Below the pieces are notes generated by a model. It saw only the letters and a list, made by a program, of their open reading frames with translations. It had not been told where the DNA came from and did not search any database. Below, one piece after another: positions 1,610 through 54,747 of a stretch of 64,000 nucleotides of DNA. Source of the stretch: Planctomycetota bacterium (GTDB lineage Bacteria; Planctomycetota; UBA11346). Within the stretch, counting starts at the first letter, position 1, and each line of letters starts with the position of its first letter. The stretch covers positions 3,362-67,361 of the forward strand of contig JALHRW010000002.1 of assembly GCA_022841245.1 (NCBI GenBank). The letters are read 5' to 3'. The translations under genes and the position numbers were made by a program.

Positions 1610-1628
1610 GGTGCACCGACGATGCTCC
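1610..1628 (+). promoter_or_regulatory. copy of the GGTGCACC-N6-GCWCC element upstream of the AraC-family gene
   Basis: GGTGCACCGACGATGCTCC read directly. It lies in the 465-bp AT-richer divergent intergenic region, about 160 nt upstream of the ATG at 1790. Confidence 0.5.
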
Positions 1629-1789
1629 AGAGGCAGATGGTGGCCTTGCCACGCATCCGGACATCAGATTCTCTTGCACACATAATTGACATTACCAACT
1701 GGTTGGTTAGCATCACTGACGTCCCCCTCAGCAGCTATCGCTGCCGTTCCCGGCCGGGTGCCCAACCGCGTCAACAGGGAGTGCGAACC

Positions 1790-2635
1790 ATGTTCGACCA
1801 CAGCCATACCGCCAGCGCGTCTACCACTGCCGGCGAGACTCCGCCCCAGGCTGCCCCGGCCTGGCGCCTGCATGGCGTCGGCCGCTTCCGCGGGCACCCC
1901 GGCGAGATCGCCAACGAGGGCCCGCATCCGTACACCTCGATCCGCTACATCGAGGAGGGGCATGCCACCGCCTGGATCGACGGCTCGGTACGCAAGCTCG
2001 GCGCCGGCGATGTCTGCATCGTCCACCGCGAAGCCCGAGTGCAGATCTACCACGACCCGGCGCATCCCATCGCCGGCATCATGGTCGACTGTTCCGGCCC
2101 GTTGATCGCCCAGTTGATCGCAGCCTATCGCCTGACCGACCGCGCCCACATCGCCCAGGCCTCGATCGGCCCGGCCATCCGCAGCCTGCAAGGCATGGCC
2201 AGCACCAGCGACATCCCGCGGCGGGCCGGCCTGGCCTTGCACGAACTGCTGGCCCAGCTTGGCGAACGGGTCGAGGAACAGCCGGCCTGGCCGGAAGTCG
2301 TACGCTTGAGCAAGGCCTACATCGACGACAATATCGACTCGCCGCTGCGCTTGGCCGACGTCGCCCGCCACGCCCGCTGCTCGGAGGCCCACCTGAGTCG
2401 CATGTTCCGCCGCTACCTCGGTGTCCCTCCCGGCGACTACGGCCTGCGCCAGCGCATGGCCCTGGCCAAGCGCCTGCTGCTGACCACCGACGCTTCGATC
2501 AAGTCGATCGCCAATCGGCTCGGCTACCGCGACACCTTCGCCTTCTCGCACGCCTTCAAGAATGTCGAGGGCACCGCGCCGACGCTCTGGCGCACCGCCG
2601 ACCAGCGCTCGCGGGGGCTGGCCCGCGCCTCATGA
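1790..2635 (+). CDS. AraC-family transcriptional regulator (cupin-type N-domain plus AraC HTH)
   Basis: Part of ORF 1622..2635. I chose the internal ATG at 1790, preceded by AGGGAG. C-terminal HTH: HLSRMFRRYLGVPPGDYGLRQRMALAKRLLLTTDASIKSIANRLGYRDTFAFSHAFK. The N-terminal part is cupin-like (YIEEGHATAWIDGSVRKLGAGDVCIV). Confidence 0.85.
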   Translation: MFDHSHTASASTTAGETPPQAAPAWRLHGVGRFRGHPGEIANEGPHPYTSIRYIEEGHATAWIDGSVRKLGAGDVCIVHREARVQIYHDPAHPIAGIMVDCSGPLIAQLIAAYRLTDRAHIAQASIGPAIRSLQGMASTSDIPRRAGLALHELLAQLGERVEEQPAWPEVVRLSKAYIDDNIDSPLRLADVARHARCSEAHLSRMFRRYLGVPPGDYGLRQRMALAKRLLLTTDASIKSIANRLGYRDTFAFSHAFKNVEGTAPTLWRTADQRSRGLARAS

Positions 2636-3930
2636 ACAGCCTCCCCGTCGGCCTCGGCGCGCGCATTGCGAGCGCACAACCGGCCTTGTGGTGCAACCCA
2701 GGGCGACGACCGCTGGCCAGGCTCGCAACCCATCTCGCCGCGTGCCCGGCGGCGATCGACGATGCCGAGAACCGCCTGCGCCGCTTCGCTCCCCTGCTCG
2801 CCCGGCTTTTCCCCGAGCTAGCCGCCAGCGCCGGGCTCATCGAATCGCCGCTCATCCCGCTGCCGGGTTTCGCTGAGCGGCTCGGCGCGGGATCGGCACG
2901 GGTGCTGCTCAAAGCCGACCACGCCCTGCCGGTATCCGGATCGGTGAAGGCCCGCGGCGGCATCCATGCCGTGCTCGCCGCCGCCGAGCGCGTCGCAGCC
3001 GCAGAGGGGCTGCTGGGCATCGGGGAAGACCGCCTGGTGCTCGGCAGCGAGCGCGCCCGGGCCATCTTCGCCGAGCGCACCATCAGCGTCGGCAGCACCG
3101 GCAACCTCGGCATGTCGATCGGCATCGCCGGCCGGGCCCTCGGCTTCCGCGTCGTCGTGCACATGTCCGCCGACGCCAAGGCGTGGAAACGCGATCGGCT
3201 GCGTCGGCTGGGCGCGGTGGTGGTCGAACACGCCGGCGACTACCTCGCCGCCTGCGCCACCGCCCGGGCCGAGGCCGCGCAAGATCCGCGAACCAGCTTC
3301 ATCGATGACGAGAACTCGCCCGATCTGCTGTTCGGCTATGCCGTCGCCGGACGCCGGCTCGGGGCGCAGCTCGCCGCACTGGGCATCGTGGTCGATTCCA
3401 ACCGGCCGCTGGTACTGCATCTGCCGTGCGGCGTCGGCGGCGCACCGGGCGGCGTCGCGCTAGGCACCCGCCTGGCCCTGGGCGATGGGGCGCTCGCCAT
3501 CACCGCCGAGCCGGTGCAGGCCCCCTGCCTGCTGCTCGGCCTGGCCAGCGGCTGCCATGACGGCATCGCCGCCGCGGATCTCGGCCTGCACGGACGGACC
3601 CTGGCCGACGGCCTTGCGGTGCCGCGCGTCTCCGGCCTGGTCAGCCGCCTGGTCGAGCCGCTGCTCGACGGTTGCGCCACCGTCACCGACGAGGAGCTGT
3701 GCACGCATGTCGCCACGCTGCACCGCCACTATGGCCTGCGACTCGAACCGTCGGCTACGGCCGGCGTCGGCAGCCTGCGCCTGCTGCTCGCCTCGGCAGA
3801 CGGCACCGCCATGCGCACCACGCTGCGCCAGACCTGCGCCATCGACGAAGCGGTGCATATCCTCTGGGCCACAGGCGGTTCGCTGATCCCCGACGAGGAG
3901 TTCGCCACGATCCTCGCCCGCGCCGGCTGA
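2632..3930 (+). CDS. dsdA: D-serine ammonia-lyase (PLP-dependent, DsdA family)
   Basis: ORF 2632..3930. It is collinear with the DsdA family as I recall it: RLRRFAPLLARLFPE, the PLP-lysine motif SGSVKARGGIHAVL, SVGSTGNLGMSIGI, VHMSADAKAWKR, FIDDENS, LPCGVGGAPGGVA, LEPSATAG and WATGGSLIPDEE. The ATG overlaps the AraC stop (ATGA 2632-2635). Confidence 0.88.
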   Translation: MNSLPVGLGARIASAQPALWCNPGRRPLARLATHLAACPAAIDDAENRLRRFAPLLARLFPELAASAGLIESPLIPLPGFAERLGAGSARVLLKADHALPVSGSVKARGGIHAVLAAAERVAAAEGLLGIGEDRLVLGSERARAIFAERTISVGSTGNLGMSIGIAGRALGFRVVVHMSADAKAWKRDRLRRLGAVVVEHAGDYLAACATARAEAAQDPRTSFIDDENSPDLLFGYAVAGRRLGAQLAALGIVVDSNRPLVLHLPCGVGGAPGGVALGTRLALGDGALAITAEPVQAPCLLLGLASGCHDGIAAADLGLHGRTLADGLAVPRVSGLVSRLVEPLLDGCATVTDEELCTHVATLHRHYGLRLEPSATAGVGSLRLLLASADGTAMRTTLRQTCAIDEAVHILWATGGSLIPDEEFATILARAG

Positions 3931-3945
3931 CCAGGAGACCCGACG

Positions 3946-4917
3946 ATGTTCGACGACGTGATCACCAGGGATGACGACGCGACTGGATGGCCGGCGCGAC
4001 GGGCGCGCATCCGCCAGCGCATCCTCGCCAGCATGGGCACGCCGTCCTGCCCGCTGCCGGGCGCGGTCGCCTGCCGCAGCGAAGGCCACCTGGTCGAGTA
4101 CGGTCTGCAGCGCGAGGACATCGCCTTCGAGGTGCTGCCCGGCCTGGTCTGCCACGGCCACTTCTACCACGGCGGCGGCACCGGCCTGCCCGGGGCGGTG
4201 TGCATCCACGGCACCAACCGCGATCTCGCCTGCAAGGCCGTCGCCGCGCCCGAGCTGAAGCCGGACATGGCCTACGCCATCGAACTCGCCCGACTCGGCT
4301 TCCTCGCCATCACCGTCGACCAGTTCGGCTTCGGCCGCTGGTGCGGGAAGGACGGCGAAGAGGCGTTGTACCGGCGCTTCTTCGCGGCGCACCCCGACTG
4401 GTCGCTCGACGGCATGCGCCTGCACGTGCAGCGCTGCGCGGTCGACGTGCTGCGCGCGCACCCCCTCGCCGATCCGACGCGCACCGTCTGCATCGGCAAC
4501 TCGCTCGGTGGGCGCTCGGCCCTGCACCTGGCAGCCTTCGATGAGCGCATCAACGCTGCTGCCGTCTCCACCGGCGTCAGTCCGAACCTGACCAACGTCT
4601 ACCGCAACACCGCGACCGATCCGTGCCTGGCGCTGAGCCCCCGGCTCAACGCCGCGATCGCCGAGGACGGCCGACCGCCCTGGGAATACCCGGAACTGCT
4701 CGCCCTGGTCGCGCCACGCACGCTGCTGCTGATCGAGCCGTTCAACGATCCGTACAACCCGTTCATCGAGGCGACCACCGCCTGCTTCCTGGCGGCGCGG
4801 CGGGTCTACGAACTGCTCGGCGCACCGCAACGCCTGTCGCTGCTCTGCCACGGCAACGGCCATGGCACGGCCGAACCGCTGCGCGCCTACGCCTACGCCA
4901 TGCTGCGCACGGCCTGA
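3946..4917 (+). CDS. alpha/beta-fold hydrolase (esterase / dienelactone-hydrolase-like)
   Basis: ORF 3946..4917 with AGGAG at 3933-3937. Nucleophile elbow GNSLGG. General alpha/beta hydrolase layout. Substrate unknown. Confidence 0.6.
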   Translation: MFDDVITRDDDATGWPARRARIRQRILASMGTPSCPLPGAVACRSEGHLVEYGLQREDIAFEVLPGLVCHGHFYHGGGTGLPGAVCIHGTNRDLACKAVAAPELKPDMAYAIELARLGFLAITVDQFGFGRWCGKDGEEALYRRFFAAHPDWSLDGMRLHVQRCAVDVLRAHPLADPTRTVCIGNSLGGRSALHLAAFDERINAAAVSTGVSPNLTNVYRNTATDPCLALSPRLNAAIAEDGRPPWEYPELLALVAPRTLLLIEPFNDPYNPFIEATTACFLAARRVYELLGAPQRLSLLCHGNGHGTAEPLRAYAYAMLRTA

Positions 4918-4920
4918 TCG

Positions 4921-7900
4921 TCAGCGCGACAGCTGGGCGATGCGCCACTCGGCAAAGCGCTCGATCAACGGATCCGGCCACGGCGCGGCGAGCCGGCGCT
5001 TGTGCCCGGGTAGGGCGAGGAAGGCCTTCCAGCCGGCCAGGGCCACGGCGGTGTCGCGCTGGGCGTCGGCACACATCGCGTCGCCCACGATGCGCCAGGC
5101 TTCGGCCTCGACCTGCATCGGTTGGGCGAGCAGGGCCTGGACCGGATCGGTCCCGTCGCAGTAGCGGGCGAGATGCCAGGCGCGACGGGCGAATCGGGTA
5201 TCGAAGGCCTGGGCTGCGGTCAGCCCGCGCCGCCAGGCACCCTCATTGCCGGCCAGCTCCTGCTGCAGCGGGATGGCGAAAAGCGGGAGGAACCAGTGGC
5301 GATCGAGCGGCGAGCGCCGGATGTCCTCGCCCAGCGTCCCGGCTTCGGCCCGTCCTTCCTCGATGGCGCGCAGCCAACGGGCCTGCTTGCGATGACGCGG
5401 TTCGTAATCGGTGAGGAAGCCCTCCTCCCAGCGGCCGAGACGATAGAGCGCTTCGCACGGCACCCAGGTGACGCCGGCCGGATCGGCGGCCTCCTCCCAG
5501 CGGCCGGCCAAGGCGAGCAAGGCTCGATTGCGCGCCCAGCCTGGCCTGGCCAGGGCCGCATCCACCTCACCACGCGCGATGTGGGCATAGACGCTGTCAG
5601 CCTGCGTGGTCGCCAGTTCCGACTGCAGATAGCGCCCGGACATGAGCAGGAGCACGGCGCGGCGGCCGGTCTCCAGGCCATCGAGGGCCAAGGCGTTGTC
5701 GACATCACCCAGTTCGACGAGGGCTTCACCGCGTTCGATGATCAGCGCCTCGGGGCTGTCGGCCACCTCGCGGCAGCGGCCCAAGGCGAGCAGAGCCGCG
5801 CAGCGCTCGCGTGGCAGGACGTACGGATCACGCAGCAGCTCTTCAGCCCGGTCCAGGCGCACCAGCATGCTCGCGGTGATCATCGCCGACGCCTGGTCGG
5901 CCGGCATGCAGCTGCGGCGGAGTGCGATCAGTTGGGCGCAAACGTCCTCCGCCGCCTCGCCTGGAATCTTGTTCCAACGCTGGGCCCAGCCCTGCCAGAG
6001 GTTGGACAGCATGGTGGCCAGCTGCGGCGCGCGGCGGTGCAGGGCGACGAAACGCTCGCCGATGCGGGGATCCCAGTCACCCGCTGCAGCATGCGTCAGC
6101 CGGTGGGTCTCGGCCCGATCGTTCCAGATGCCAGGTGGCAGCGCCGACCACAGGTCCAGGGCGCGCGCGGCGCGCTGGTCGCGGAAGGCGGCGAGCCCCT
6201 GCAGATAGCGCGCCTCGGCGCCCAGCTCGCCGGTGCGCATGGTGTCGGCGACCTGGCCCCAGCGGTGCTCGGCGCTGGCGAAGCGGCCCTCGGCGAAATC
6301 GGCCTCGCCGACCGACAGCACGCTGATCAGCTCGGCCGGCTGGCGGTTGTAGATGCGGATGTTGGAGAAGGCCTTGCCCGGATGGTAGGCGTAGAGCTCG
6401 AGGTGGCCGTTGCCCACCGTGGTGACGTCGTCGTTGAACGACAGCAGCTTGCGCCCGTCGATCGACAGCGAGAGGTTGCGGCCATCGATCTCGGCACGCA
6501 GTCGGTAGCGCCGCCCCGGCTCGAGACGCAGCGGCGAGAAGGCGACGAACTCGTTGGCGGGCAGGCGCAGGATCGCGCAGTGCGAATTCTGGAAGGCGCC
6601 GGCCTTGATCGCCCAGCCCGCCTTCGGCTTGCCGTCATCGGGACCATCGACCAGCCACTGGATCGAGAGGTCGCCGGGCACGGCGTTGGGCAGGAATTCG
6701 GCGTCGTATTCGATGGCCAGCTGCGGATTGAGCGGCCGCTTCAGGCGCAGGCGCGAGTCGTAGCCGCCGCGGCTGACCATCAGGCCCGGCCGGCGGTCCC
6801 AGGTGCCGACGAGGTCTTCTTCCCAGCGCTGGCGCCAGCCGTCGTCGCGGAAATCCTCGACCACCAGCGGCTCGCCCCAGCGCGCCACCTGGCGCATGCG
6901 TTCGCCATAGACGTACCAGCCGGCGGCGAGCAGGCATAGCGCGACCGCCGCCGCGATGGCGATGCGGCCGGCGTGCGCCCGCAGGCGCACGAGGGCGCGT
7001 TCGGCCAGACCGGGACGGTAGGCGCGCAGGGCCAGACCCTGCTGCCAGCGCGACAGCTCGGCGCCGAGCTCGCCGGCGTCGGCGTAGCGCCGCTCGGGAT
7101 CCGGATCGAGCGCTTTGCGCACCACGGCGAGCAGTTGGCGTCCGACGCGTTGCTCCTCGGCCGGCGACGGCCACGTGACGGCGCCCCGGCGCTTGCGCTC
7201 CCAGAACGCGGCGGGGTCGTCCTCATGGATGGGGACGCGCAGCAGCAGGGCCTGGAACAGCGAGCAGCCGATGGCGTAGACGTCGCTGCGCCGGTCGGCC
7301 GGTTCGCTGCGCGCCTGCTCCGGGCTCATGAAGTACGGCGTGCCGACCAGCCGGCCGATCGACGCCGAGGCCTCGCCGATGACCCGGGCCTCGCCCCAGT
7401 CCACCACCTGGACCTCGCCGTGCAGACCGAGCATGATGTTGTCGGGCTTGATGTCGCGATGGACGATGCCGCGGCTGTGCGCGCGGGACATCGCTTCGCA
7501 CACCTTGATGAACACGCCGACCACCTGCCCCGGCGTGGTCAGGTCGGCGACACTGCCGCCGCTGGTGGCCTGCGCGATCGCGTTGCCCAGGCTGCGCCCG
7601 ACGATCCGGCGCATGGTCAGGCAGGCCTTGCCATCCGGCTCGACCAGCAGGTCGTAGATCGGCACGATGTTGGGATGGTCGAGGCTGGCGGTGATGCGCG
7701 CCTCGCGCAGGAAGGCCTCGCCCTGCCGACCGGTGGTCGCGGCGAGCATCTTCAGCGCCACCTGGCGGCCGAGTACCGTGTCGCAGGCCTCGTAGACCGG
7801 TCCGCTGACGCCGCGACCGAGTTCGCCACCAAGGACATAGCGGGAGGCGGGCGTGCCGCCGGCGGCAGTCGCTTCGGCCGGACCCTCGCGGATCGTCTCC

Positions 7901-7929: not shown

Positions 7930-8999
7930 GACCGGACATCCTGAGCCGCCCCGCTGACCGGCAATGGCCGCACCGCCAGCCGGAACGGCGGACCAGCGAC
8001 ACCGGCGAGATTGAGCGAGCGCAGCGACAGCGCGATGCCCTTGGCCGGCAGGCGCAGCGAGAACAGTTCATGGCAGGCCTGCCAGGTCGCGCCGTCGGTC
8101 GACACCTGGTAGGCGGCGAGATTGGGCGTGCACGAATCGATGCGCACCTGCAGCAGGCCGCTCTCGATGCGCAGATCGCAGGCGAGCACGTTCGGCGTCC
8201 ACTCGATCCACGAGCGGTGCACCGTGCGGATGAAGAAGCCGGCCTCGTAGGCCCAGTGCGGCTTGCCGTCGCGGATCCAGGTGCCGGCGCGGAAGGCCTC
8301 GTCGTCGAGCACGACCAGGCTCGCCTGCCCGCTGCACGGCAGCGAGCTGAAGGCGGCGGTACCGGGCTCCCACGACAGCCAGCGGTAGAACGAAGCGTCC
8401 TCGCCACCGCGGCGCGGCCCCTCGCGGCGCTCGGGACCATAGACCAGTCGCACGCCGGTCGCGCCGTCGCGCAGCACCTGGTCGCGGATCTCCAGGGCCG
8501 AGAGCGGAACGCCGTCGAGCTCGTAGTGCAGGTCGTACTTGGCGTCGACCACCACCCATTTGCGCAGAGCGTTGACCCACACCTCGTTGACCCCGTGGTG
8601 GCGCCCGTCCTGCAGCGTACCCGGGCCGACGCCGAGCCGCCGGCAGACGTGGCCGTAGGCGTTGAGCACCGTGTCCTGCACCACGGTGAAATGCGCGCAG
8701 TGGAAGCGCCCGCCCTGCGCCGCCGCATCGAGGATGGCGACCGCGTGGCCATGCAGGGTCGGAGTCGGATTGGCGTCCTCGATGCCGATGCGCCGGGCGA
8801 TCCAGTGCCGCAGGGCGAGGATGCGCGCCAGCTCGTCCTCGACTCCGGCGACGGCCTCGTCGATGGCGAAGCGCGCACGCAGCGCAGCGAAGCGGGGATC
8901 GCGCAGGTCCTCGTAGGCGGGGAACAATTCATTGCGGCGCAGCTCGGGGTTGCCCGACTGGTCTATTTCGAATCCCGGGTGAGTCGCTTGGGACGTCAT
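7926..8999 (-). CDS. transglutaminase-like (Cys-His-Asp core) protein, paralog 1
   Basis: ORF 7926..8999. Papain/transglutaminase-like triad context: GGRFHCAHF ... GRHHGVNEVW ... VVDAKYD. No obvious signal peptide. It is clearly paralogous to 48912..49994. ATGA overlaps occur at both ends. Confidence 0.7.
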   Translation of the reverse strand: MTSQATHPGFEIDQSGNPELRRNELFPAYEDLRDPRFAALRARFAIDEAVAGVEDELARILALRHWIARRIGIEDANPTPTLHGHAVAILDAAAQGGRFHCAHFTVVQDTVLNAYGHVCRRLGVGPGTLQDGRHHGVNEVWVNALRKWVVVDAKYDLHYELDGVPLSALEIRDQVLRDGATGVRLVYGPERREGPRRGGEDASFYRWLSWEPGTAAFSSLPCSGQASLVVLDDEAFRAGTWIRDGKPHWAYEAGFFIRTVHRSWIEWTPNVLACDLRIESGLLQVRIDSCTPNLAAYQVSTDGATWQACHELFSLRLPAKGIALSLRSLNLAGVAGPPFRLAVRPLPVSGAAQDVRS

Positions 9000-16274: not shown

Positions 16275-16329
16275 GCGTCCACTATAGGCGGACCAACCGG
16301 GTTGCCCAGTCCATCGCGCCGTGGCGTAT

Positions 16330-16375
16330 GGCGATCCCATGGTGCACCATATATCGCGCGGCACTGGCCTCACAA
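16330..16375 (-). promoter_or_regulatory. candidate promoter plus GGTGCACC element of the pseudopilin operon
   Basis: The minus strand reads TTGTGA (16375-16370), a 16-nt spacer, then TATATG (16353-16348) running directly into GGTGCACCATGGGATCGCC (16348-16330). Confidence 0.5.
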
Positions 16376-16530: not shown

Positions 16531-16550
16531 TGGTGCACCATGGGTTCACT
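16531..16550 (+). promoter_or_regulatory. GGTGCACC element overlapping the oxidoreductase start codon
   Basis: TATAGT (16523-16528), then GTG, then GGTGCACCATGGGTTCACT (16532-16550). The embedded ATG (16540) is the only plausible start of the downstream CDS. Confidence 0.5.
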
Positions 16551-17622
16551 TACACACAATCTGGAAAGCCTCCCTCTCGCCACTGGTGCACCACAGCGCC
16601 GGACACGTCGGCCGGCCCGACTGGCCTTCGTCGGATTGGGCAAATTCGCGCAGGAACTCGCCACTGCCTGCACCAAGCAGCCACGGCGGATCACCATAGC
16701 CTCGTGCTTCACCCGCACCGCCGCCACCCGCGACGCGTTCGCCCGGACCTTCGCCTGCGGCCAGCACGACTCGTTCGAGGCCCTGTGCGCCGATCCCGAT
16801 ATCGATGGTGTGGTCCTGGCGACACCCAACGACACGCACGGCGACCAGACCGTCGCCCTGGCGCGCGCCGGCAAGCACGTCTTCGTCGAGAAGCCGCTGT
16901 GCAACACCCTCGACGAGGCCGATCGCATGATCGCCGCCTGCGCCGAAGCCGGCGTGATCCTGGCGGTGGGTCACCAGGAGCGTCGGCACAGCGTCTACCG
17001 ACGGATGAAGAACATGCTGACCAGCGGCGCGCTCGGCCGCGTCCTCGCCTTCGAGGCCAACCACTGCGGCAACCTGGTCGGAATCTGGCCGAAGGACGAT
17101 TGGCGCTTCGACACGGCGCGCGGGGTCGGCCCGCTGCTGCACAAAGGCATCCACAAGATCGACATCCTCAACTACCTCTTCGGTCGCGCCGAGACGGTGG
17201 CGACGCTGACCATCCCGCTGGCGATCAATCCGGCCATGCCGGGCACCACCGTCTCGGTGCTCGGCTTCCGCGGCGGCATCATCGGCAGCCTGACCTCGGG
17301 CTTCGAGCACAACAACTCCTCCTTCACCATCAGCGGCAGCGTACGCTCGATCGCCTACTCCGGCCACGGTCCGAGCATCCGGGTGAAGGACGAGCGCACC
17401 TGGACCTTCCAGGAGATCGATTGCGGGGCCGACGATCCGCTCGGCGAGGAGCTCGGCGAGTTCGCCGAGGCGGTGCGCGGCGCCGGCCCGGTCGAGGTCG
17501 ACGGTCAGGCCGCCCGCGAGGCCATCGCCGTCGCGGTGGCGGCGCAGAGCGCAGCCGAACGTGGAGCCGTGGTCCAGCTCGACGAGTTCCGCCACGCCGC
17601 GATCGCGGCCGAATCCGCTTGA
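16540..17622 (+). CDS. Gfo/Idh/MocA-family NAD(P)-dependent oxidoreductase
   Basis: Within ORF 16321..17622. Rossmann start LAFVGLGKFAQ. Family motif HVFVEKPL and AVGHQERR. Start placed at ATG 16540; no ATG lies closer to the Rossmann fold. Confidence 0.8.
   Translation: MGSLTHNLESLPLATGAPQRRTRRPARLAFVGLGKFAQELATACTKQPRRITIASCFTRTAATRDAFARTFACGQHDSFEALCADPDIDGVVLATPNDTHGDQTVALARAGKHVFVEKPLCNTLDEADRMIAACAEAGVILAVGHQERRHSVYRRMKNMLTSGALGRVLAFEANHCGNLVGIWPKDDWRFDTARGVGPLLHKGIHKIDILNYLFGRAETVATLTIPLAINPAMPGTTVSVLGFRGGIIGSLTSGFEHNNSSFTISGSVRSIAYSGHGPSIRVKDERTWTFQEIDCGADDPLGEELGEFAEAVRGAGPVEVDGQAAREAIAVAVAAQSAAERGAVVQLDEFRHAAIAAESA
16584..16593. promoter_or_regulatory. third TGGTGCACCA palindrome, 53 bp downstream of the second and inside the 5' end of the CDS
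   Basis: Exact TGGTGCACCA read at 16584-16593 (codons ACT GGT GCA CCA). It lacks the GCWCC extension. Confidence 0.35.
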
Positions 17623-17677
17623 CCGTGCCTGCGCCTGGATCACCTGCGGTGCGCCAGCCAAGGTACGAGGAGAGCCC

Positions 17678-18718
17678 GTGAGCAAGGCCAGCGACATCGC
17701 CGACACCATCCTGAAGCGCGTCCGCACCGGCGCCTACCCGGACAAGGTCCCCGGCGAACGCAGTCTGGCCGAGGAGTTCCGCGCCGATTTCAAAACTGCA
17801 AATCGCGCCATCGGTCTGCTGGTCGAGCAGGGCGTGCTGGAGCGCCGCCGCGGGCAGGGCACCTTCGTCAAGCGCCTCGACCAGCGCCGCGACGCCACCC
17901 TCTCGCTGTGCTTCTACAAGTTCGCCGATCTCGGCCGCGATCCGGTATTCACCCGCTTCTTCGCCGGCATGAACAGCGCCGTCACCAGCCACCGCGTGCG
18001 CCTGCACGTCACCACGCTCAAGGATGTGGTCGGCGACGACAAGCTCGATCCGGCGCAGAGCGCCGAGCGCTTCGTGCGCGATGCGCTGGCGGTCGATCCC
18101 GACGGCATCATCTACCTCGGCAACGTCGACATCCCGGTGATCGAGCGCCTGCGCGCCGACCGGCCGCTGATCGCGGTCGCCGAATGCCCGCCGTCCCTGG
18201 CGGTCGACAGCGTGCGGCGGAACATCCGCGCCGGCACCGCCGACGCCGTGCGGCGCTTCGCCAAGGCCGGCCACCAGCACATCGCCCTGGCGACCTACCG
18301 CCACGATGCCACCTCCTTCGACCTGGCCGAGAAGGAGCGCGGCTACCTGGAAGCGATCGAGGAGCTCGGCCTGCAGCCGCGCATCCTGCACCGCACCAGC
18401 CCGGCCGAGGAGCAGCTGACGCAGCAGCTCCTCGCGGTGACCCCGCGTCCGACCGCCGTGGTCGCCAGCGAAAGCACCATCGGCCTGGCCCTGGTGCGCA
18501 GCGCTCCCGGCCTCGGCCTGCGCATTCCGCAGGATCTCGCCGTCACCTCGTTCGACGACGGCGACATCGGCTCGTTCACCCAGCCGCAGATGTCGAGCAT
18601 CCACGCCTTCGGCGAGGAACTCGCCACGCTGGCGGTCGAGCGCATGATCGGCCGGCTCGATGGCCGCATCACCGGCCGGATCGACGACGTCCTGCCCTGC
18701 CCGAGCATCGAGCGTTGA
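17678..18718 (+). CDS. hybrid transcriptional regulator: GntR-type winged HTH plus LacI/PBP1-type sugar-binding domain
   Basis: Within ORF 17561..18718. GTG at 17678 is preceded by GGAGAG. N-terminus: ERSLAEEFRADFKTANRAIGLLVEQGVLERRRGQGTFV. The C-terminal domain is LacI-like (IALATY ... LAVTSFDDGDIG). Confidence 0.8.
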   Translation: MSKASDIADTILKRVRTGAYPDKVPGERSLAEEFRADFKTANRAIGLLVEQGVLERRRGQGTFVKRLDQRRDATLSLCFYKFADLGRDPVFTRFFAGMNSAVTSHRVRLHVTTLKDVVGDDKLDPAQSAERFVRDALAVDPDGIIYLGNVDIPVIERLRADRPLIAVAECPPSLAVDSVRRNIRAGTADAVRRFAKAGHQHIALATYRHDATSFDLAEKERGYLEAIEELGLQPRILHRTSPAEEQLTQQLLAVTPRPTAVVASESTIGLALVRSAPGLGLRIPQDLAVTSFDDGDIGSFTQPQMSSIHAFGEELATLAVERMIGRLDGRITGRIDDVLPCPSIER

Positions 18719-18759: not shown

Positions 18760-18779
18760 AGGTGCACCATAGGTTAACC
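18760..18779 (+). promoter_or_regulatory. GGTGCACC element upstream of the jelly-roll / heparinase operon
   Basis: TGTTAG, then GGTGCACCATAGGTTAACC (18761-18779), 15 nt before the ATG at 18794. Confidence 0.5.
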
Positions 18780-26376: not shown

Positions 26377-26399
26377 ATGGTGCCCCATTGGTGCACCAA
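26377..26399 (-). promoter_or_regulatory. GGTGCACC element upstream of beta-helix gene 24548..26353
   Basis: The minus strand reads TTATTG, then GGTGCACCAATGGGGCACC (26397-26379), 25 nt before the ATG at 26353. Confidence 0.5.
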
Positions 26400-27588: not shown

Positions 27589-27607
27589 GCATAGCCCGAC
27601 GTGCACC
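27589..27607 (-). promoter_or_regulatory. degenerate copy of the GGTGCACC element upstream of the phosphotriesterase-family gene
   Basis: The minus strand reads ATGGTGCACGTCGGGCTATGC. There is one mismatch in the octamer and the second half is poorly conserved. Confidence 0.3.
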
Positions 27608-30271: not shown

Positions 30272-30349
30272 GCCGGAGAACCATGCCGAGGCGCGCCTGT
30301 GACGCCAGATGCCATGGAGCTTCCTGACCGGGCGATGTCGGATCGCGAC

Positions 30350-31633: not shown

Positions 31634-31693
31634 GCGGCGGCACCATACCGGCTGAGCGGGCCGGCACCAGCCGGCCGCAGAAGTGTTGTGGCC

Positions 31694-33969: not shown

Positions 33970-33988
33970 GGTTGGGGTTCCGTGGAAT

Positions 33989-34999: not shown

Positions 35000-35007
35000 G
35001 ACGATTC

Positions 35008-40995: not shown

Positions 40996-41011
40996 GAGGG
41001 TCCTGGATGAT

Positions 41012-44403: not shown

Positions 44404-44419
44404 GTGGACTCCTTGGGTG

Positions 44420-46474
44420 TCAGGCGCCGATTTCGGTCGCCTCGTACTGATCGTTGAAGGCATGCAGCCGCGCCAGGTAGCCGTCGAGGTCGAGGAGATC
44501 CTCGTCGACCATCAGATAGCGCATGTCGGCGGTGCGGTTGGCGAAGTGGCGGGCGCGCTCCGGACGCCACATGTAGGTGCGCCCGTCGGCGGCCAGACCC
44601 TTGGGCAGGCGGGTGCGCTCCCAGCAGGCGACCAGCTCGCGGTAGACGCGCTCGCGCTCGGCGATCAGTCCGCCCAGCACCTCCTCCATGCCGCGCAGGC
44701 AGCGCAACGCGCCGGCACGGTCGATGACGTGCAGATCGTAGGAGGCCGTCTTGAGCAGCTCCTCGACCCGGCCGAGGCCGAGGATGAGGTCGACGTTGTG
44801 ACGCATCAGCGCGACGCAGGACAGCATCACCTCGAGGTCGTAGGCATGATGCGCGCCGTGAGCCAGGTTGGCGCGCAGGATCGACTCGGCGCGTTCCAGG
44901 CCCTGACGCTGCTCGTGCGCTCGGCGCAGCATCGGCGCATAGCGTTTGCGCCAGAAGGTGTCGTATTCCAGCCCGGCGCGCGGGAGGTCGGGGAGGTGCA
45001 CCTTGCCGACATCGCCCCAGTGCCAGACGCGGCGCTGCAGCGTGTCGTCGTAGAACAACGCCCCCTCCTGCAGCAGGCGCTGGCATTCGCGCATGCTCCC
45101 GGCCTGGGCGCCGAAGTAATGCAGGTAGAAGCGGTCGATCCAGGCGTCGAGGTCGGGCTCGTCGGGGTTCCAGCTCCAGGCGCAGGCGCAGGCGAAGTGC
45201 GGCATGAACATCTGGTTGTGCAGGCCGGAGTCGTCCCACGAGGTGGTGATCGAACCGCGCACCGAGCCGTCGCGCGCGGCGCGGCGGATGGCGTCGCTGG
45301 TGCGGGCGAAGCCGCCGACCCAGCGCTCGCCCGGCCAGTCGCTCCACATCGACGACTTGACCCACGGCAGCTGGAAATCGATCAGCGCGGTGACACCGGT
45401 GTTGGGAGCGTAGATCCAGCAGGGATAGCCGGCCTCGGCCGAGGCCTTGACCACCTCCGGCCGCTCACCGTCGCACCACACCATGCCCGGACGCGGTGGA
45501 CGGCCGCCCGGCTTCCACTGCCCGCCCCACGACAGGCAGGTGCGGCCCTGCGCTTCGACCCAGTCGGTGCAGCGGTCGATGAACAGCCGCATCAGGTCGT
45601 CCTTGCCGTGCGCCGCCGCGTGCGCGGCGCAGCCGCAGGCGGTGCCCAGGCCCAGCTCGTAGGTTTCGTCCGAGCCGATGTGCAGGAAGCGGCTGCCCGG
45701 CGTCGCCTCGATCGCCTCGCTCCACAGCTGGAAGAGCAGCTCGTAGCTGCCCTCCTTGAGCGGGCAGAATTCCCAGTCGGAATCGGGGATCTCGCGCAGG
45801 TGGCGGAACTCGCGGTGCTTGAGGATGAAGGGCACGTGGCCGAGGCCCTGCACCAGCGGCACGATCTCGACGTGGTGACGGCGGGCGTAGGCGGTCAGCT
45901 CGGCCATCTGCGCGATGGTGAAGGCGCCGGGCGCGCCGAGCTGCGGGTGCCGACGCCAGGCGAGCTTGTCCTCCCACTCCCACACCAGGATGTTGGCCTT
46001 CCACGCCGCGATCTCGCGGATGAACGACTGCACGTAGGCGTAGGTGTCCTGGTGGTGCTTGGTGTCGTAGTGGATGGCGCGATGGGCCAGGGCCGGCGCG
46101 TCGTCGATGCGCAGGCAGGGCAGGCGCCGCCCGTCGAGGCACTGGATCAGCGTCTGCACCGCGTAGTAGACGCCGGCCGCGTCGTTGCCCACGATGCGGA
46201 TGCCGTCGGCCGCGATGTCCAGGCGGTAGCCCTCGACCGGACCGTCGCCCCGGGCGATGCTGACCAGCGGCGCTGCGCCGCCGATCATCGCCGTGATGCC
46301 GAGCTCGTGCAGAGCCTCGATCAGACAGGTGGCAGCGAAGGCATCCTCGTCGTCGTCAGCGGCAATGCGGATGGCCAGGCGCGCAGGAAGCACCAGCTCC
46401 CCGCCGGTGAGGTTCAGTGAACGCGGCGTCGGGATGAGGTTGGGCGTCATGGGCTCGGTCTCGGTCGAGCTCAT
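44420..46474 (-). CDS. glycoside hydrolase family 20 beta-N-acetylhexosaminidase-like
   Basis: ORF 44420..46474. The N-terminal domain is GH20b-like (IPTPRSLNLTGG ... GYRLDIAADGIRIVGNDAAGVYYAVQTL). The catalytic region carries the H-x-G-x-D-E motif (FLHIGSDETYELG). The ATG overlaps the upstream stop (46471-46474). Confidence 0.75.
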   Translation of the reverse strand: MSSTETEPMTPNLIPTPRSLNLTGGELVLPARLAIRIAADDDEDAFAATCLIEALHELGITAMIGGAAPLVSIARGDGPVEGYRLDIAADGIRIVGNDAAGVYYAVQTLIQCLDGRRLPCLRIDDAPALAHRAIHYDTKHHQDTYAYVQSFIREIAAWKANILVWEWEDKLAWRRHPQLGAPGAFTIAQMAELTAYARRHHVEIVPLVQGLGHVPFILKHREFRHLREIPDSDWEFCPLKEGSYELLFQLWSEAIEATPGSRFLHIGSDETYELGLGTACGCAAHAAAHGKDDLMRLFIDRCTDWVEAQGRTCLSWGGQWKPGGRPPRPGMVWCDGERPEVVKASAEAGYPCWIYAPNTGVTALIDFQLPWVKSSMWSDWPGERWVGGFARTSDAIRRAARDGSVRGSITTSWDDSGLHNQMFMPHFACACAWSWNPDEPDLDAWIDRFYLHYFGAQAGSMRECQRLLQEGALFYDDTLQRRVWHWGDVGKVHLPDLPRAGLEYDTFWRKRYAPMLRRAHEQRQGLERAESILRANLAHGAHHAYDLEVMLSCVALMRHNVDLILGLGRVEELLKTASYDLHVIDRAGALRCLRGMEEVLGGLIAERERVYRELVACWERTRLPKGLAADGRTYMWRPERARHFANRTADMRYLMVDEDLLDLDGYLARLHAFNDQYEATEIGA

Positions 46475-47514: not shown

Positions 47515-47515
47515 T

Positions 47516-47562
47516 GGAGCACCTATGGTGCACCTTATACGCGACGGCTACCTCATATTCAA
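47516..47562 (-). promoter_or_regulatory. candidate promoter plus GGTGCACC element of the 24-kb minus-strand gene train
   Basis: The minus strand reads TTGAAT (47562-47557), a 17-nt spacer, then TATAAG (47539-47534) running directly into GGTGCACCATAGGTGCTCC (47534-47516). An A follows, then the GTG start at 47514. Confidence 0.55.
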
Positions 47563-47692
47563 GTCGTCAGGCCCTTAGCAATTGCAGGCAATGGACTAAT
47601 GACTCATCCGTGAGCACAGAGGACGCAGAAGGCGAAGAGCTGGGTTGGGTCCTCCTCGAGCCTCCTTCTGTGCAAGGCCTATGATCAGCACC

Positions 47693-48793: not shown

Positions 48794-48911
48794 GGGAGCA
48801 TCGTACCCGTTCAGCACCGGACCGAGGCCGTGTCCGGCGAGCTGCACGATGACTCAGTCGCGGCAACAACTTGCAACGGAGGTGCGTTGTCGGAGGCCGC
48901 CGACATGGCCC

Positions 48912-49994: not shown

Positions 49995-50002
49995 GACGAT
50001 CC

Positions 50003-51754
50003 TCAGGGTTTCGGCGGTTCGAGGCCAGCATCGCGACCGAAACGCGCACGCCACGGCGAAGCGGCGGGCAGGCGTCCCTCATCGTCGAGGACGACGGCGC
50101 CGCTCGCTCCGTCGATGTCGAAGCAGCCCTTGAGTGCGCTCCACGGCGTGCGCTTGCCGCCCCAGCCGGGGATGAACTCGGCGCGCTCATCGACCAGGTT
50201 GCCGTTCCAGGCGACGTAGCGGAAGGCCTTGGCGAAGCCGCTGTCGTGCGGCAGGCGGGCGAGGAACGGCACCTCCTTGCCGGTCTGCGCCGGCACGGCG
50301 ATGGCGTTGGCCCAGACGTGGATCAGGCGGCGGTCCTTGGGGAAATCGCGGACGATCGCCTGCGCATCGGGGTCGTTGGGCCCGGCCAGCTTGCGGTCGC
50401 CAGCCTCCAACGGCTCGGGCGCGGCGGCCGCCCCGCCCATCAGCGTCACCGAGCCACGCAGGGCGTTGTGGTGGATCCAGATGTTGCGCACCCAGCCCGG
50501 CTGGCTGCCGATCTGCAGGTCGCCGTCGACGAAGTTGTGGTGGAAGTCGATGCCATCGTTGCAGCCCTGGGCGGCGTACATGACGTTGCCCTTGAAGACG
50601 TTGTTGCGCACCGTGTTGTCCCAGCCGTTGTCCTTGTCCATGAAGGCGTGGCCGCGGGTGCGTTCGAAGCGGCTGTCCTCGACCAGCATGCCCTGGGTGG
50701 TGTACCAGTGGAAGCCGGCGCCGGCCTCGCCGAGCACGTCGGAGATGGTGCACTCCTGCAGCACGATGTGGCGGTAGGGCAGCGACTCGGGCCGCTTGCC
50801 GAAGGGGAAGGTCTCGCCGGGTGCGGCCTTCTCGTACTTCCGCTCGGCGGCGAAGCCGAAGATGAACGAGGAGTTCTCGCGCCAGTCGCCCCACAGGTGG
50901 TGCAGCTTGCAGCGCCGCCAGGTCAGGCCGCTGCGCTTGCCGTCCCACATGACGAACATGTAGAAGCAGGCGTTGCGGAACTCCAGGCCGTCGAAGACCA
51001 GGCCGTCGACCTGGTGGTCGATGTAGACGCGGTGGCCGTAGCCGGTGGTCGAGGCCCCCTCCTTCTTCACCGCGCGCTCGGCGGCCAGGGCCGCCGACCA
51101 CTTCTCCTCGCTCCAGCCGAGGTCGATCACCGGCTGCTCGCCCGGCCAGGCCGCCCAGCGCCGTGGCGAGGTCTTGCCGATGGTCAGGACGTTGGCGTTC
51201 TTCTTGCCCGCCGCGGCGGGCACCTCGACCGCATAGGTGCCGCCACGCAGGTACAGCGTGGTGCCGGCCGGATCTTCCACCGGCTGCGTCGCGCGCATCA
51301 CCGTCTTCCACGGCTTGGCGAAGGTGCCGGGATTGGCGTCGTCGCCCTCGGGGCCGACGAAGACGAAACCCGCGGTTCCCACCGCGATGCTGAAGGTCTG
51401 CTCGGCCTGCCGTCCGGCCAGGTCGGCCACCGTCACGGTCACGGGCACGCTGGCCTCGGCCTGCGGCGCCGTCCAGGTGATCGCACCGCTGCGCGGGTCG
51501 ATGGCCATGCCGGCCGGCGCCCCGCGCAGGGCGAAGCGGTACGGCCAGGTGCCGCCGGTCACCGCCGCACGCGCCTCGTAGCGCGCGCCGGGATAGGCGC
51601 GCAGCGGCGGCGAGGTGATGAAGGCCGGCTGGGCGAAGGCCGGCGCGTCCTCGGGCCGGACGTAGCGGGCATCGCCCTCGGCGGCGCCGAGGCAGGCGGT
51701 GAGCAGCAGACAGGCGAGTGTGAAGCGATGCATGGTTCCGTTCCCAGGTTTCAT
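50003..51754 (-). CDS. secreted Ig-like plus beta-helix protein (family A)
   Basis: Within ORF 50003..51784. ATG at 51754 (ATGA overlap); an alternative ATG lies at 51733. The Ig-like segment is YPGARYEARAAVTGGTWPYRFALRGAPAGMAIDPRSGAITW. It is followed by FVFVGPEGDDANPGTFAKPWKTV. Confidence 0.7.
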   Translation of the reverse strand: MKPGNGTMHRFTLACLLLTACLGAAEGDARYVRPEDAPAFAQPAFITSPPLRAYPGARYEARAAVTGGTWPYRFALRGAPAGMAIDPRSGAITWTAPQAEASVPVTVTVADLAGRQAEQTFSIAVGTAGFVFVGPEGDDANPGTFAKPWKTVMRATQPVEDPAGTTLYLRGGTYAVEVPAAAGKKNANVLTIGKTSPRRWAAWPGEQPVIDLGWSEEKWSAALAAERAVKKEGASTTGYGHRVYIDHQVDGLVFDGLEFRNACFYMFVMWDGKRSGLTWRRCKLHHLWGDWRENSSFIFGFAAERKYEKAAPGETFPFGKRPESLPYRHIVLQECTISDVLGEAGAGFHWYTTQGMLVEDSRFERTRGHAFMDKDNGWDNTVRNNVFKGNVMYAAQGCNDGIDFHHNFVDGDLQIGSQPGWVRNIWIHHNALRGSVTLMGGAAAAPEPLEAGDRKLAGPNDPDAQAIVRDFPKDRRLIHVWANAIAVPAQTGKEVPFLARLPHDSGFAKAFRYVAWNGNLVDERAEFIPGWGGKRTPWSALKGCFDIDGASGAVVLDDEGRLPAASPWRARFGRDAGLEPPKP

Positions 51755-52968: not shown

Positions 52969-52969
52969 G

Positions 52970-54724
52970 TCAGGGCCTGTTCTGGCCGGCGTCGCGGCCG
53001 TAGTTGGTGCGCCATGGCGACTTCGCCGGCAGACGGCCCTCGTCGTCGAGGACCACCGCGCCGCTGGCTCCGCTCATGTCGAAGCAGACTTTCAGCTCGC
53101 TCCACTTCACCCGCTTGGCCGACCAGCCGACGACCAGCTCGGCAGCCTCATCGACCAGGTTGCCATCCCACCAGACATGGCGGTGGGAATTGGCGAAGCC
53201 GGCGTCGGGCGAGACGCGATTGAGGTGCGGCTTCTCGCCGCCGGGCTTCTGCTCAGGCACATCTATGACGTTGGCCCAGGCGAAGATCAGACGCTGCTCG
53301 CGCGGGTTGTCGCGGATCGCGGCGAGGCTGTCAGGATCGGCTGGCCCGGCCAGCTTGCGGCCGGCTGCATCCAGCTTGCCGGGGCCGCCCGTCGCCCCGC
53401 CCATCAGCGACACGCCGCCGCGGATGGCGTTGTGGTGCAGCCAGAGGTTGCGCAGCCAGCCCGGCTGGGCGCCCAGGTGCAGATCGCCATCGATCCAGTT
53501 GTGGTGGATGTCCAGCCCATCGTTGCAGCCCTGGGCGGCGATCATGACGCCGCCGCGGATGACGTTGTTGCGGTAGGTGTTGTCCCAGCCGTTGTCCTTG
53601 TCGAGGATGGCCATGCCGCGGGATATGCGCTCGAAGCGGGTATCCTCGACCAGGCAGCCCTGCGTGGTGTACCACACCAGCCCGCCGCCGTGCCAGGCCC
53701 CTTCGCGGACGTTGTGGTAGGGCCGGTCGGTGATGGCGCAGTCCTGCACGACCATATGGCGATACGGCTTGACCCCCGGCCGCTTGCCGAAGGGGAAGCT
53801 TTCCCCCGTCTCGGTCTTCTCGTACTTCCGATCGGCGGCGAAGCCGAAGATGAACGAGGAGTTCTCAGCGTAATCGCCATAGAGATGGTGCATGTTGCAG
53901 CGCCACCAGGTCAGGCGCTCGCGATTGCCCTCCCACATCACGAACATGTAGTAGGCCGCGTTCTTCACTTCCAGGCCGTCGAACAGCAGATCGTCGATCT
54001 GATGGTCGATGGAGATGCGATGGCCGTAGCCTTGGGTGGTGACGACATCCTTCCTCTTGGCGTCGACCTCGGCCTGCTCCGCCGCCAGCGCCGCCTTCCA
54101 CTTCTCCTCGGTCCAACCGAGATCGATCACCGGCTTCTCGCCGGGCCAGGCCCGCCAGCGGCGCGGCGAGGTACGCTGGATGCCGAGGACGCCGTCGTTC
54201 TTCTTCCCCTCTTTGGCCGGAGCATCGATCGTGTAGGTGCCGCCGCGCAGGTAGAGCGTGCTGTTCGCCGGATCCTCGACCGGCTGCGCCGCGCGCGTCA
54301 GCGTCTTCCACGGCTTGGCGAAGGTGCCTGCATGGGCGTCGTCGCCGTCCGGAGCGACGAAGTGGAAGCCTGAAGTGCCCACGGTGATGGTGAAGGACAG
54401 CTCGGCCGACCGCTCGGCCAGATCCGTCGCCGTCACCGTCACCTCGACAGGACCCTCAGCCGCCGGTGCCTTCCAGGCGATGGCGCCGCTACGCGGATCG
54501 ATGGTCATGCCCGCTGGCGACGCCCGCAGGGCGAAGCGGTACGGCCAGGTGCCGCCAGTCACCGCGGCCCGCGTCTCATAGAGCGCGCCGGGATAGGCCC
54601 GGGGCGGCGGCTGGGTGATGAAACCCGGCTTGGCCAGAGCCGGTGAGTCCTCGGGCCGGACGTACCGTCCGTCGTCCTGGGCGGCGAGGGTCAGACAGGC
54701 GAGCAGCAGGAGTACGTAATGCAT
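52970..54724 (-). CDS. secreted Ig-like plus beta-helix protein (family A)
   Basis: Within ORF 52970..54739. ATG at 54724 gives the signal peptide MHYVLLLLACLTLAAQ. The upstream in-frame ATG at 54739 lies inside the GGTGCACC element. FHFVAPDGDDAHAGTFAKPWKTL. Confidence 0.7.
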   Translation of the reverse strand: MHYVLLLLACLTLAAQDDGRYVRPEDSPALAKPGFITQPPPRAYPGALYETRAAVTGGTWPYRFALRASPAGMTIDPRSGAIAWKAPAAEGPVEVTVTATDLAERSAELSFTITVGTSGFHFVAPDGDDAHAGTFAKPWKTLTRAAQPVEDPANSTLYLRGGTYTIDAPAKEGKKNDGVLGIQRTSPRRWRAWPGEKPVIDLGWTEEKWKAALAAEQAEVDAKRKDVVTTQGYGHRISIDHQIDDLLFDGLEVKNAAYYMFVMWEGNRERLTWWRCNMHHLYGDYAENSSFIFGFAADRKYEKTETGESFPFGKRPGVKPYRHMVVQDCAITDRPYHNVREGAWHGGGLVWYTTQGCLVEDTRFERISRGMAILDKDNGWDNTYRNNVIRGGVMIAAQGCNDGLDIHHNWIDGDLHLGAQPGWLRNLWLHHNAIRGGVSLMGGATGGPGKLDAAGRKLAGPADPDSLAAIRDNPREQRLIFAWANVIDVPEQKPGGEKPHLNRVSPDAGFANSHRHVWWDGNLVDEAAELVVGWSAKRVKWSELKVCFDMSGASGAVVLDDEGRLPAKSPWRTNYGRDAGQNRP

Positions 54725-54728
54725 GTTA

Positions 54729-54747
54729 GGTGCCCCCATGGTGCACC
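54729..54747 (-). promoter_or_regulatory. GGTGCACC element upstream of the second beta-helix operon
   Basis: The minus strand reads GGTGCACCATGGGGGCACC (54747-54729), then TAAC, then the ATG at 54724. Confidence 0.5.

Follow-up and report, generated by a model that had tools for sequence, protein, structure and literature searches.

A 64,000-nucleotide (nt) stretch of contig JALHRW010000002.1 from a Planctomycetota bacterium (the window; 68% GC) carries genes for glycan degradation, a pseudopilin operon and a gene for a GntR/LacI-type regulator. The octamer GGTGCACC recurs in this stretch as part of a paired palindromic element, which is the subject of this report. Genes were mapped by an analysis of third-position GC content by reading frame (GC3) together with Pfam. 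The features in question are listed below, with scores from the weight matrix described later.

17678..18718, forward strand: candidate regulator gene (346 amino acids, aa), GntR-type winged helix-turn-helix (HTH) plus LacI/GalR-type sugar-binding domain
17637..17655, forward strand: tandem site GGATCACCtgcGGTGCGCC, 15.4 bits, 22 nt ahead of the regulator GTG
16532..16550, forward strand: tandem site GGTGCACCatgGGTTCACT, at least 15 bits, head of the GFO/IDH/MocA oxidoreductase and regulator unit
16330..16348, reverse strand: tandem site GGTGCACCatgGGATCGCC, 26.4 bits, head of the pseudopilin operon
18761..18779, forward strand: tandem site GGTGCACCataGGTTAACC, 30.8 bits, ending 14 nt ahead of the ATG at 18794
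26379..26397, reverse strand: tandem site GGTGCACCaatGGGGCACC, 30.2 bits, ending 25 nt ahead of the ATG at 26353
47516..47534, reverse strand: tandem site GGTGCACCataGGTGCTCC, 32.5 bits (the top score), 1 nt ahead of the GTG at 47514
54729..54747, reverse strand: tandem site GGTGCACCatgGGGGCACC, 21.8 bits, head of the second He_PIG/beta-helix unit
1422..1440, reverse strand: tandem site GGCTGACCataGGAGCACC (gene orientation), 18.6 bits, ~60 nt ahead of the probable start GTG 1360
1610..1628, forward strand: tandem site GGTGCACCgacGATGCTCC, 15.7 bits, in the divergent DUF6785/AraC region

Exact copies of GGTGCACC were found at ten positions: 1610, 8216, 16341, 16532, 16585, 18761, 26390, 44995, 47527 and 54740. 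This agrees with the count in the preliminary description of the window, which placed the second copy at 8217 instead of 8216. Dinucleotide-preserving shuffles of the window contained 2.07 copies on average and 5 at most. By the gene map, intergenic DNA makes up 3,561 nt (5.6%) of the window, compared with the earlier estimate of about 3 kb, and seven of the ten octamers fall there, as had been reported. The expected intergenic enrichment thus holds in the window. The octamer at 16585 lies 45 nt into the GFO/IDH/MocA gene, as previously stated, provided that this gene starts at the ATG at 16540. The copies at 8216 and 44995 are indeed located deep within genes, and two coding copies are about what chance predicts.

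The intergenic octamers had been described as carrying an oriented extension, together forming a 19-nt element. The element is real, but the extension is a second, weaker copy of GGTGCACC situated exactly 11 bp downstream, as in GGTGCACC-atg-GGGGCACC, GGTGCACC-ata-GGTGCTCC and GGTGCACC-ata-GGTTAACC. Allowing up to three mismatches, the pattern GGTGCACC-N3-GGTGCACC matched nine times in the window, compared with 1.01 matches expected and a maximum of 4 in shuffled sequences. Eight of these matches precede transcription units, seven of them at no more than ~65 nt from the start codon and the eighth, at 1610, at ~180 nt; the ninth (8205-8223) is intragenic and at chance level. The promoter-proximal octamer was the better copy in seven of the nine gene-heading tandem sites, a set that includes 1422-1440 and excludes 8205-8223.

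A logo built from 29 sites of the window and related loci reads w-w-a-T-GGTGCACC-A-w-n-GGTGCaCC-a. The unit of the motif is a 10-bp palindrome, TGGTGCACCA (T-GGTGCACC-A, of the type GT-N2-AC), repeated with an 11-bp period, which places both palindromes on the same face of the helix. The GG of the half-site was invariant in all 29 sites, whereas the 3-nt spacer varied (ATG, ATA, AAT, TGT, CCT, TAT and others) and the information content of the flanks dropped to about zero beyond ~3 nt on either side. The information content of the octamer itself is inflated in this logo, as the sites were picked by octamer matching. The pattern wwaT-GGTGCACC-A conforms to the operator signature of GntR proteins, (N)x-GT-N(0-15)-AC-(N)x with an A/T-rich periphery.

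For an independent view of the window, a symmetrised weight matrix was trained solely on sites of other loci. Nine window sites reached at least 15 bits (47516, 18761, 26379, 16330, 54729, 1422, 16532, 1610 and 17637), all of them intergenic or abutting a start codon. Thirty shuffled windows scored 14.6 bits at best and averaged 0.23 hits of at least 10 bits. Seven of the eight 19-nt sites listed previously are among the nine; the sites at 1422-1440 and 17637-17655 had been missed. The eighth, a degenerate site at 27589..27607 on the reverse strand, was rejected, since it scores 2.3 bits, similar to random hits in coding sequence, and has 6 mismatches to the tandem consensus. The matrix found no motif ahead of the non-glycan units of the window (the TPR/alpha-CTD protein, the S13 peptidase and the pst operon) and no site in the internal gaps of the long operons (30272-30349, 31634-31693, 33557-33988, 48848-48911, 50055-50186 and 12994-13336). 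The proposed location of the element at the heads of glycan and pseudopilin units is supported by this distribution and by conserved footprints at several of these heads.

These footprints came from alignments (A2 to A4) of the divergent pseudopilin/oxidoreductase region and of the gaps before and after the regulator gene with three related loci, L081 (90% identity), L084 (87%) and L085 (68%). The motif blocks appeared as invariant islands, while the surrounding intergenic DNA had diverged with insertions and deletions. In alignment A2, the block at 16532-16550 is invariant; a -10-like TATAGT ends 2 nt upstream of it, and the ATG at 16540, within its spacer, is the called start codon in the relatives. 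On the opposite strand, the block CCCATGGTGCACCAT of the site at 16330-16348 is invariant in the same alignment. The site at 18761 retains the block GGTGCACCATAGGT..ACC in all four genomes. Finally, the site at 17637-17655 is kept in L081, L084 (exact octamer) and L085 despite diverged flanks, and is probably an autoregulatory operator.

The genes behind these sites fall into several units. The first gene behind the 16330 site (15717-16340) encodes a GspG-like protein with an N_methyl motif (Pfam matches to N_methyl and T2SSG). The 18761 site heads a unit encoding a 344-aa protein, a PIG-L deacetylase and a heparinase II/III-like protein. A He_PIG/beta-helix protein (601 aa) and a 337-aa gene product are encoded behind the 26379 site, and the second He_PIG/beta-helix unit, behind the 54729 site, extends from 52970-54721/54739 through the DAO gene at 47693. 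The site at 47516 heads a train of ~21 kb, which encodes a 347-aa deacetylase-like protein, GH20 and alanine dehydrogenase (AlaDH), followed further on by GH130, GH4, MFS and PcRGLX proteins and possibly PTE. The sequence TTGAAT-17-TATAAG was read by eye directly upstream of this site, and heads homologous to that of the train carry the motif in L174, L171, L172, L002 and L089. Behind the 1422 site lies a gene for a DUF6785 membrane protein (Pfam) at positions 2-1360 of the reverse strand, cut by the left edge of the window; DUF6785 genes elsewhere are also located within motif-bearing operons (L090). A mechanically listed open reading frame (ORF) at 162-1259 is in the wrong frame.

The assignment of the 1610 site is the weakest of all. 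The AraC ORF at 1622-2635 is over-extended: its homologues are all 271-287 aa long and align from Met57, so the start is most likely Met57 at ~1790. This places the site ~180 nt upstream of the gene and not 12 nt, and the site is absent from the related AraC locus L175.

Three further octamers lie within coding sequence.

16585..16592, no strand assigned: single octamer 53 bp (~5 helical turns) downstream of 16532, within the GFO coding region
8216..8223, no strand assigned: octamer in coding sequence, 2.8 bits, consistent with chance and outside the system
44995..45002, no strand assigned: octamer in GH20 coding sequence, not among the top matrix hits, consistent with chance and outside the system

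The 16585 octamer recurs at the same 53-bp spacing in L081 and is absent from L084 and L085. The octamer may be an auxiliary operator, with weak support given this patchy conservation. Its spacing from 16532 recalls the in-phase operator pairs of AraR. Other site pairs (~188, ~202 and 122 bp apart) showed no consistent helical phasing.

The candidate regulator combines an N-terminal DNA-binding domain at residues 5-64 (PF00392, 39 bits; cut-off 27) with a C-terminal domain matching PF13377 (83.7 bits against a cut-off of 26.5). The latter resembles the cores of LacI, CcpA and PurR in the PDB, with the LacI-family structure 4o5a among the matches. The nearest PDB structures to the HTH were NagR (YvoA), DasR and FadR, followed by AraR (4egy). 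None of the NCBIfam equivalogs reached its cut-off for this protein. Its architecture places the regulator among the AraR-type proteins, a minor subfamily within the GntR family. Its homologues span 99% to 45% identity. The recognition helix contains ...DFKTANRA..., and the KTANRA helix is common to the regulators of all motif-bearing loci. R28, K39 and R43 are invariant in the regulator alignment and, by analogy, might contact the guanines of the half-site.

To follow the motif beyond the window, loci around regulator homologues were taken from genomes, metagenomes and assemblies, so that the sequence scanned comprised the 64-kb window and contigs of at most 21 kb. Of 15 distinct loci with relatives of the regulator, which belong to Planctomycetota and Kiritimatiellae, 14 have the tandem motif next to the regulator; protein identities are 29-90% and GC contents 44-70%. 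Motif-bearing loci with the KTANRA helix are L001, L002, L003, L081, L084, L085, L087, L089, L090, L092, L093, L094 and L095. In motif-bearing loci, the motif lies within ~150 bp of the regulator gene or heads adjacent operons, and in eight (L001, L002, L003, L085, L090, L092, L094 and L095) a site is found 30-122 nt ahead of the regulator start. A perfect GGTGCACCcctGGTGCACC lies ~50 bp ahead of the regulator gene of L003, a metagenome-assembled genome (MAG) of Kiritimatiellae whose regulator is 34% identical. The motif of L090 is ataacGGTGCACCaatGGTGCACCgttat. One to four sites each were present in L001 and L002 (both Planctomycetota MAGs) and in L089 (46% GC). Even L095, with 29% identity, has the same palindromes, separated by a 4-nt spacer and located just downstream of TTGACC-17-TTCAAT.

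As controls we used the remaining 151 loci, which contain distant GntR/LacI paralogues and have a similar GC content (2.04 Mb). With up to two mismatches, the orthologue loci (181 kb) contained 20 tandem sites, the window 6 and the controls 2; with up to one mismatch there were 9 sites against none in the controls. The motif is thus enriched ~100-fold over the controls. No octamers were present in L041 and L060, two Planctomycetota loci with distant paralogues only.

A second set of loci was retrieved not by the regulator but by a target gene, that for the 347-aa protein heading the 21-kb train. In L174 (81% identity to this protein), GGTGCACCataGGAGCACC is located 14 nt ahead of the ATG. L171 and L172 (65-66% identity; L172 has 52% GC) carry the motif ahead of the 347-aa gene, with a KTANRA regulator adjacent. 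In L173 (50% identity), no KTANRA-type regulator was found within 10 kb, and no motif. In both L002 and L089, a member of the 347-aa family is the next gene downstream of the regulator and has an operator-like site ahead of it; the L089 member precedes GH20, which is also the order in the window.

These results show a statistically real motif that is conserved, marks gene heads and occurs together with the regulator family. Its travelling with the regulator family, its conservation and its near-absence from the controls support the idea that it is an operator of the local regulator. We therefore consider it likely that the element is the operator of the GntR/LacI-type regulator family represented by 17678-18718, in line with the GntR-type operator originally predicted for the regulator encoded inside the cluster.

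The element might instead be the operator of a different co-inherited factor, either the AraC-family protein (~1790-2635), which had been named as a candidate binder, or an unlinked regulator. The AraC gene lies within the window with one site in its upstream region, and protein binding to the element is a prediction for every candidate alike. However, no AraC/HTH_18 gene is among the called genes of the motif-bearing loci L081, L084, L085, L087, L089 and L090, all six of which contain the GntR/LacI regulator. The locus of the 63% AraC orthologue, L175, lacks the motif, and L173 has an AraC-type gene and no motif. Members of the AraC family usually recognise direct repeats located 5' of the -35 box, whereas the short palindrome of the element fits the GT..AC rule of GntR proteins. 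A different factor, AraC included, is therefore an unlikely binder.

The GntR/LacI-type regulator can be compared with known repressors of similar build. AraR of Bacillus subtilis is a GntR/LacI chimera that binds palindromic GT..AC operators, regulates its own gene and acts cooperatively at in-phase operator pairs; the GntR operator signature (N)x-GT-N(0-15)-AC-(N)x has been described in the same context (PMC1950556; PMC4494728). The likeness lies in the fusion of a winged HTH with a LacI/GalR-type domain, in sugar-responsive control of genes for glycan or sugar utilisation, which is predicted for the present regulator, and in the presence of several operators per regulon, one of them at the regulator's own gene. 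In contrast, the AraR operator is a single 16-bp palindrome, ATTTGTACGTACAAAT (GT-N4-AC), whereas here TGGTGCACCA (GT-N2-AC) is repeated at 11 bp. The similarity is also remote (HTH against 4egy, E=1e-4), with AraR not among the listed full-length matches. Furthermore, the regulon here includes no arabinose genes, and AraR has been described from Firmicutes, while the present loci come from Planctomycetota and Kiritimatiellae MAGs. An AraR orthologue was rejected because no NCBIfam equivalog reached its cut-off, the targets include no arabinose genes and the operator differs in sequence and spacing.

The closest solved HTH domains are those of NagR (YvoA) and DasR of the GntR-HutC group (E ~1.4e-5), which are repressors of amino-sugar utilisation with TGGT...ACCA operator arms. 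The dre consensus of the NagR/DasR sites is TGGTCTAGACCA. These proteins differ from the present regulator by a C-terminus of the UTRA/HutC type instead of the LacI type, and their sites are single and not tandem. In most HutC sites the GT..AC spacing is 4 nt (PMC4494728), compared with 2 nt here. FadR shares the TGGT/ACCA arms and a similar HTH (8pqm, E=2e-5), and operators of the FadR type have a short GT..AC spacing, NyGTM-N0-1-KACNy (PMC4494728); unlike the present regulator, FadR has an all-helical effector domain, acts in fatty-acid and organic-acid metabolism and binds single palindromes. FadR and NagR each use a pair of arginines to read two adjacent guanines (PMC4333415), and the invariant GG of the half-site matches the consecutive guanines read by basic residues in these proteins. 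Repressors of the LacI/GalR family (CcpA, PurR, CytR and RbsR) share the homologous sugar-binding core and the principle of a sugar-released repressor on the promoter. They use a LacI-type HTH with a hinge helix and palindromes of 14-20 bp with a central CG, whereas the DNA-binding domain here is of the GntR type. Full-text literature searches yielded no description of the motif or of a GntR regulon in Planctomycetes, in agreement with the earlier statement that no named motif matches the element, and a search for the octamer string returned unrelated primer and sequence matches only.

For the position of the element relative to promoters, the 60 nt upstream of each site were scanned for sigma-70-like sequences with at least 8 of 12 matches and with A2 and T6 in the -10 box. 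Twelve of 38 sites had a usable promoter of this kind, and in ten of these 12 the -10 hexamer ends between -3 and +3 nt from the first octamer. Examples are TTGACC-17-TAGGAT+3, TTGACC-18-TAAAAT+1, TTGATT-17-TAATAT+0 and TTGACC-17-TACACT+3; for L095, TTGACC-17-TTCAAT+8 was read by eye. A scan with a stricter sigma-70 consensus around the window sites was almost empty. Where a promoter is recognisable, the tandem site would span from about the -10 box to +20, a classical position for a repressor. This repressor geometry is suggestive only, and repression as the mode of action is favoured with somewhat less assurance than the identity of the operator.

The following mechanism would fit these observations. 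Without a sugar effector, the regulator would occupy the tandem sites, with two dimers cooperating or a single oligomer reaching across both copies. As the sites would overlap the -10 box and the transcription start of the targets, the bound protein would block RNA polymerase. A glycan breakdown product would then bind to the LacI-type domain and release the repressor. From the comparisons above, we infer the binding protein, repression rather than activation, the stoichiometry and the effector.

Several points weigh against the proposal that the regulator acts on these sites as a repressor. Sites at regulator genes often have no recognisable promoter or are located upstream of the -35 box. 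The latter applies to L002 and L172, judging by eye from the flanking sequence, and the scan found no strong promoter at these two. Some of the A/T-rich sequence on the 5' side might be operator and not a -10 box; symmetric flanks occur at L090, L087 and the window site 26379. Two dimers of the LacI type placed 11 bp apart on one face of the helix may clash sterically. The sites at 1610 and 1422 are not conserved in L175, where AraC is 63% identical. Most loci were retrieved by means of the regulator, and the converse, that the motif implies the regulator, rests on the four loci retrieved through the target gene. Finally, L096 has the KTANRA helix (29% identity, 46% GC) and no motif, the sole such relative. 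Its regulator may have shifted in specificity. The L096 promoter region at 2040-2075 (TTGACT-17-TATAAT) contains a CCATAATGATGG palindrome instead.

The closeness of the element to -10-like boxes and start codons, in a phylum whose promoter architecture is poorly known, could also point to a generic promoter or initiation-region element of the lineage, or to the target of an alternative sigma factor. Against this, the non-glycan units of the window are without the motif, and so are other operons on the contigs of relatives (in L087, for example, those with ABC transporter, kinase and RND genes), and L041 and L060 hold no octamers at all. The distance to -10- and -35-like boxes is variable, with the L002 and L172 sites lying upstream of the -35 box, and a palindromic tandem is at odds with the bipartite -35/-10 logic of sigma factors. 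A generic element is thus very unlikely.

We give hardly any credence to a role of the element in RNA, in which the octamers would pair in the 5' leader, giving a hairpin of 8 bp closed by a loop of 3 nt that affects translation or RNA stability. Perfect tandem copies are self-complementary, 82.6% of the cells pair across 36 sites, several sites are 1-25 nt away from start codons, and in three of them the loop is an in-frame ATG. Yet column shuffles paired at 81.9%, and 147 of 500 shuffles paired as well as the real sites. Covariation was 0.066 compared with a shuffle mean of 0.065, and deviations in one octamer were not compensated in the other. Moreover, the spacer varies from site to site, some versions have one octamer only or an N4 spacing, and the L002 and L172 sites, being upstream of -35 boxes, would not be transcribed. 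A dispersed repeat of the REP/MITE kind (repetitive extragenic palindromic sequence or miniature inverted-repeat transposable element), an alternative already named in the preliminary description, or a compositional accident without regulatory role is effectively refuted: the palindrome is short and GC-rich, as is the genome at 68% GC, and its two coding copies are at chance level, but the copies share nothing past ~21-25 nt, keep orthologous positions at gene heads across genomes with diverged flanks, and persist in genomes of 44-52% GC at ~100-fold over the controls.

Returning to the operator of the GntR/LacI-type regulator, the predicted regulon would comprise the oxidoreductase and regulator unit (where the regulator gene has another site immediately ahead of it), the pseudopilin operon divergent from it, the heparinase-like operon, the two beta-helix/He_PIG operons, the 21-kb glycoside-hydrolase train and the DUF6785 gene; the AraC gene is possibly included. 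To our knowledge, there is no experimentally defined transcription-factor regulon in Planctomycetota or Kiritimatiellota. The present data offer a candidate pair of regulator and operator, for which the window alone provides about ten target promoters and over a dozen uncultured relatives provide conserved sites. Several genes of unknown function, among them those for the 344-aa and 347-aa proteins, the He_PIG/beta-helix proteins, DUF6785 and the pseudopilin operon, are thereby placed in one predicted co-regulated module with GH20, lyase-like beta-helix proteins and deacetylases, which narrows the hypotheses on the substrate. This grouping is in favour of a role of pseudopilin-like systems in glycan acquisition by these bacteria. 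Because genetic tools for the phylum are few, the pair could also be of use for inducible expression, as a promoter with its repressor. The outcome is a well-supported in-silico regulon in a poorly studied group, with no new principle or kind of mechanism.

A more far-reaching picture is doubtful as a whole: that an undescribed AraR-type GntR/LacI repressor of the PVC superphylum couples the pseudopilin operon, which is type II-secretion-like, to a large set of glycan-degrading enzymes through palindromes of 10 bp paired at a distance of 11 bp, which would require a complex with four heads or a binding mode new to the family, and that this operator covers the start of transcription and, for several genes, even the start codon, so that the mRNAs would be leaderless or nearly so. 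The spacer ATG is in frame with the downstream ORF at three window sites (16540, 16340 and 54739) and is used as the start by gene callers at oxidoreductase and pseudopilin heads in L081 (7137), L084 (8306) and L085 (6352 and 6103). Where such genes have a -10-like box just upstream, their mRNAs could be leaderless or nearly so. Alternative downstream starts exist for two of them, at 16274 and 54721. The ATG was rejected as a conserved part of the motif, as the spacer varies, and may be the real start of the three window genes.

The pseudopilin operon extends from 4921 to 16340 on the reverse strand. It begins with the GspG-like gene and encodes two further N_methyl proteins, large unknown proteins and, as its last product, a Ser/Thr protein kinase of 1002 aa. 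The order of its first five or six genes is kept in L081, L084 and L085. In the conserved core of the predicted regulon (43297-47514, 47693-48847 and 2632-3930 of the window, and L171, L174 and L090), a GH20 hexosaminidase is found together with deacetylase-like proteins. Enzymes related to alanine also occur in this core, namely alanine racemase-like proteins (in the relatives), alanine dehydrogenase, a DAO-type flavin adenine dinucleotide (FAD) oxidoreductase and a pyridoxal phosphate (PLP) enzyme. One might speculate that the substrate contains amino sugars and alanine, for example peptidoglycan-like or amino-acid-decorated glycans. The gene at 55225-56865 of the window has an unusual architecture and no motif ahead of it.

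In L172 (52% GC), a tandem site at 1676-1694 lies 1 nt after TTGACC-18-TAAAAT, ahead of a gene for a sigma factor of the extracytoplasmic function (ECF) type (Sigma70_r2). This arrangement suggests a regulatory cascade in that organism. Ahead of the AraC start in the window, a distinct conserved block, GCACA(C)ATAATTGACATTACCAACTGGTTGGTTA, is located at 1676-1716 and in L175 at ~4055-4095. It contains a -35 sequence TTGACA and the inverted repeat ACCAAC-TG-GTTGGT between the -35 and -10 boxes, and is near-identical in L175 though AraC is only 63% identical. The block is probably the operator of another factor, perhaps of AraC itself.

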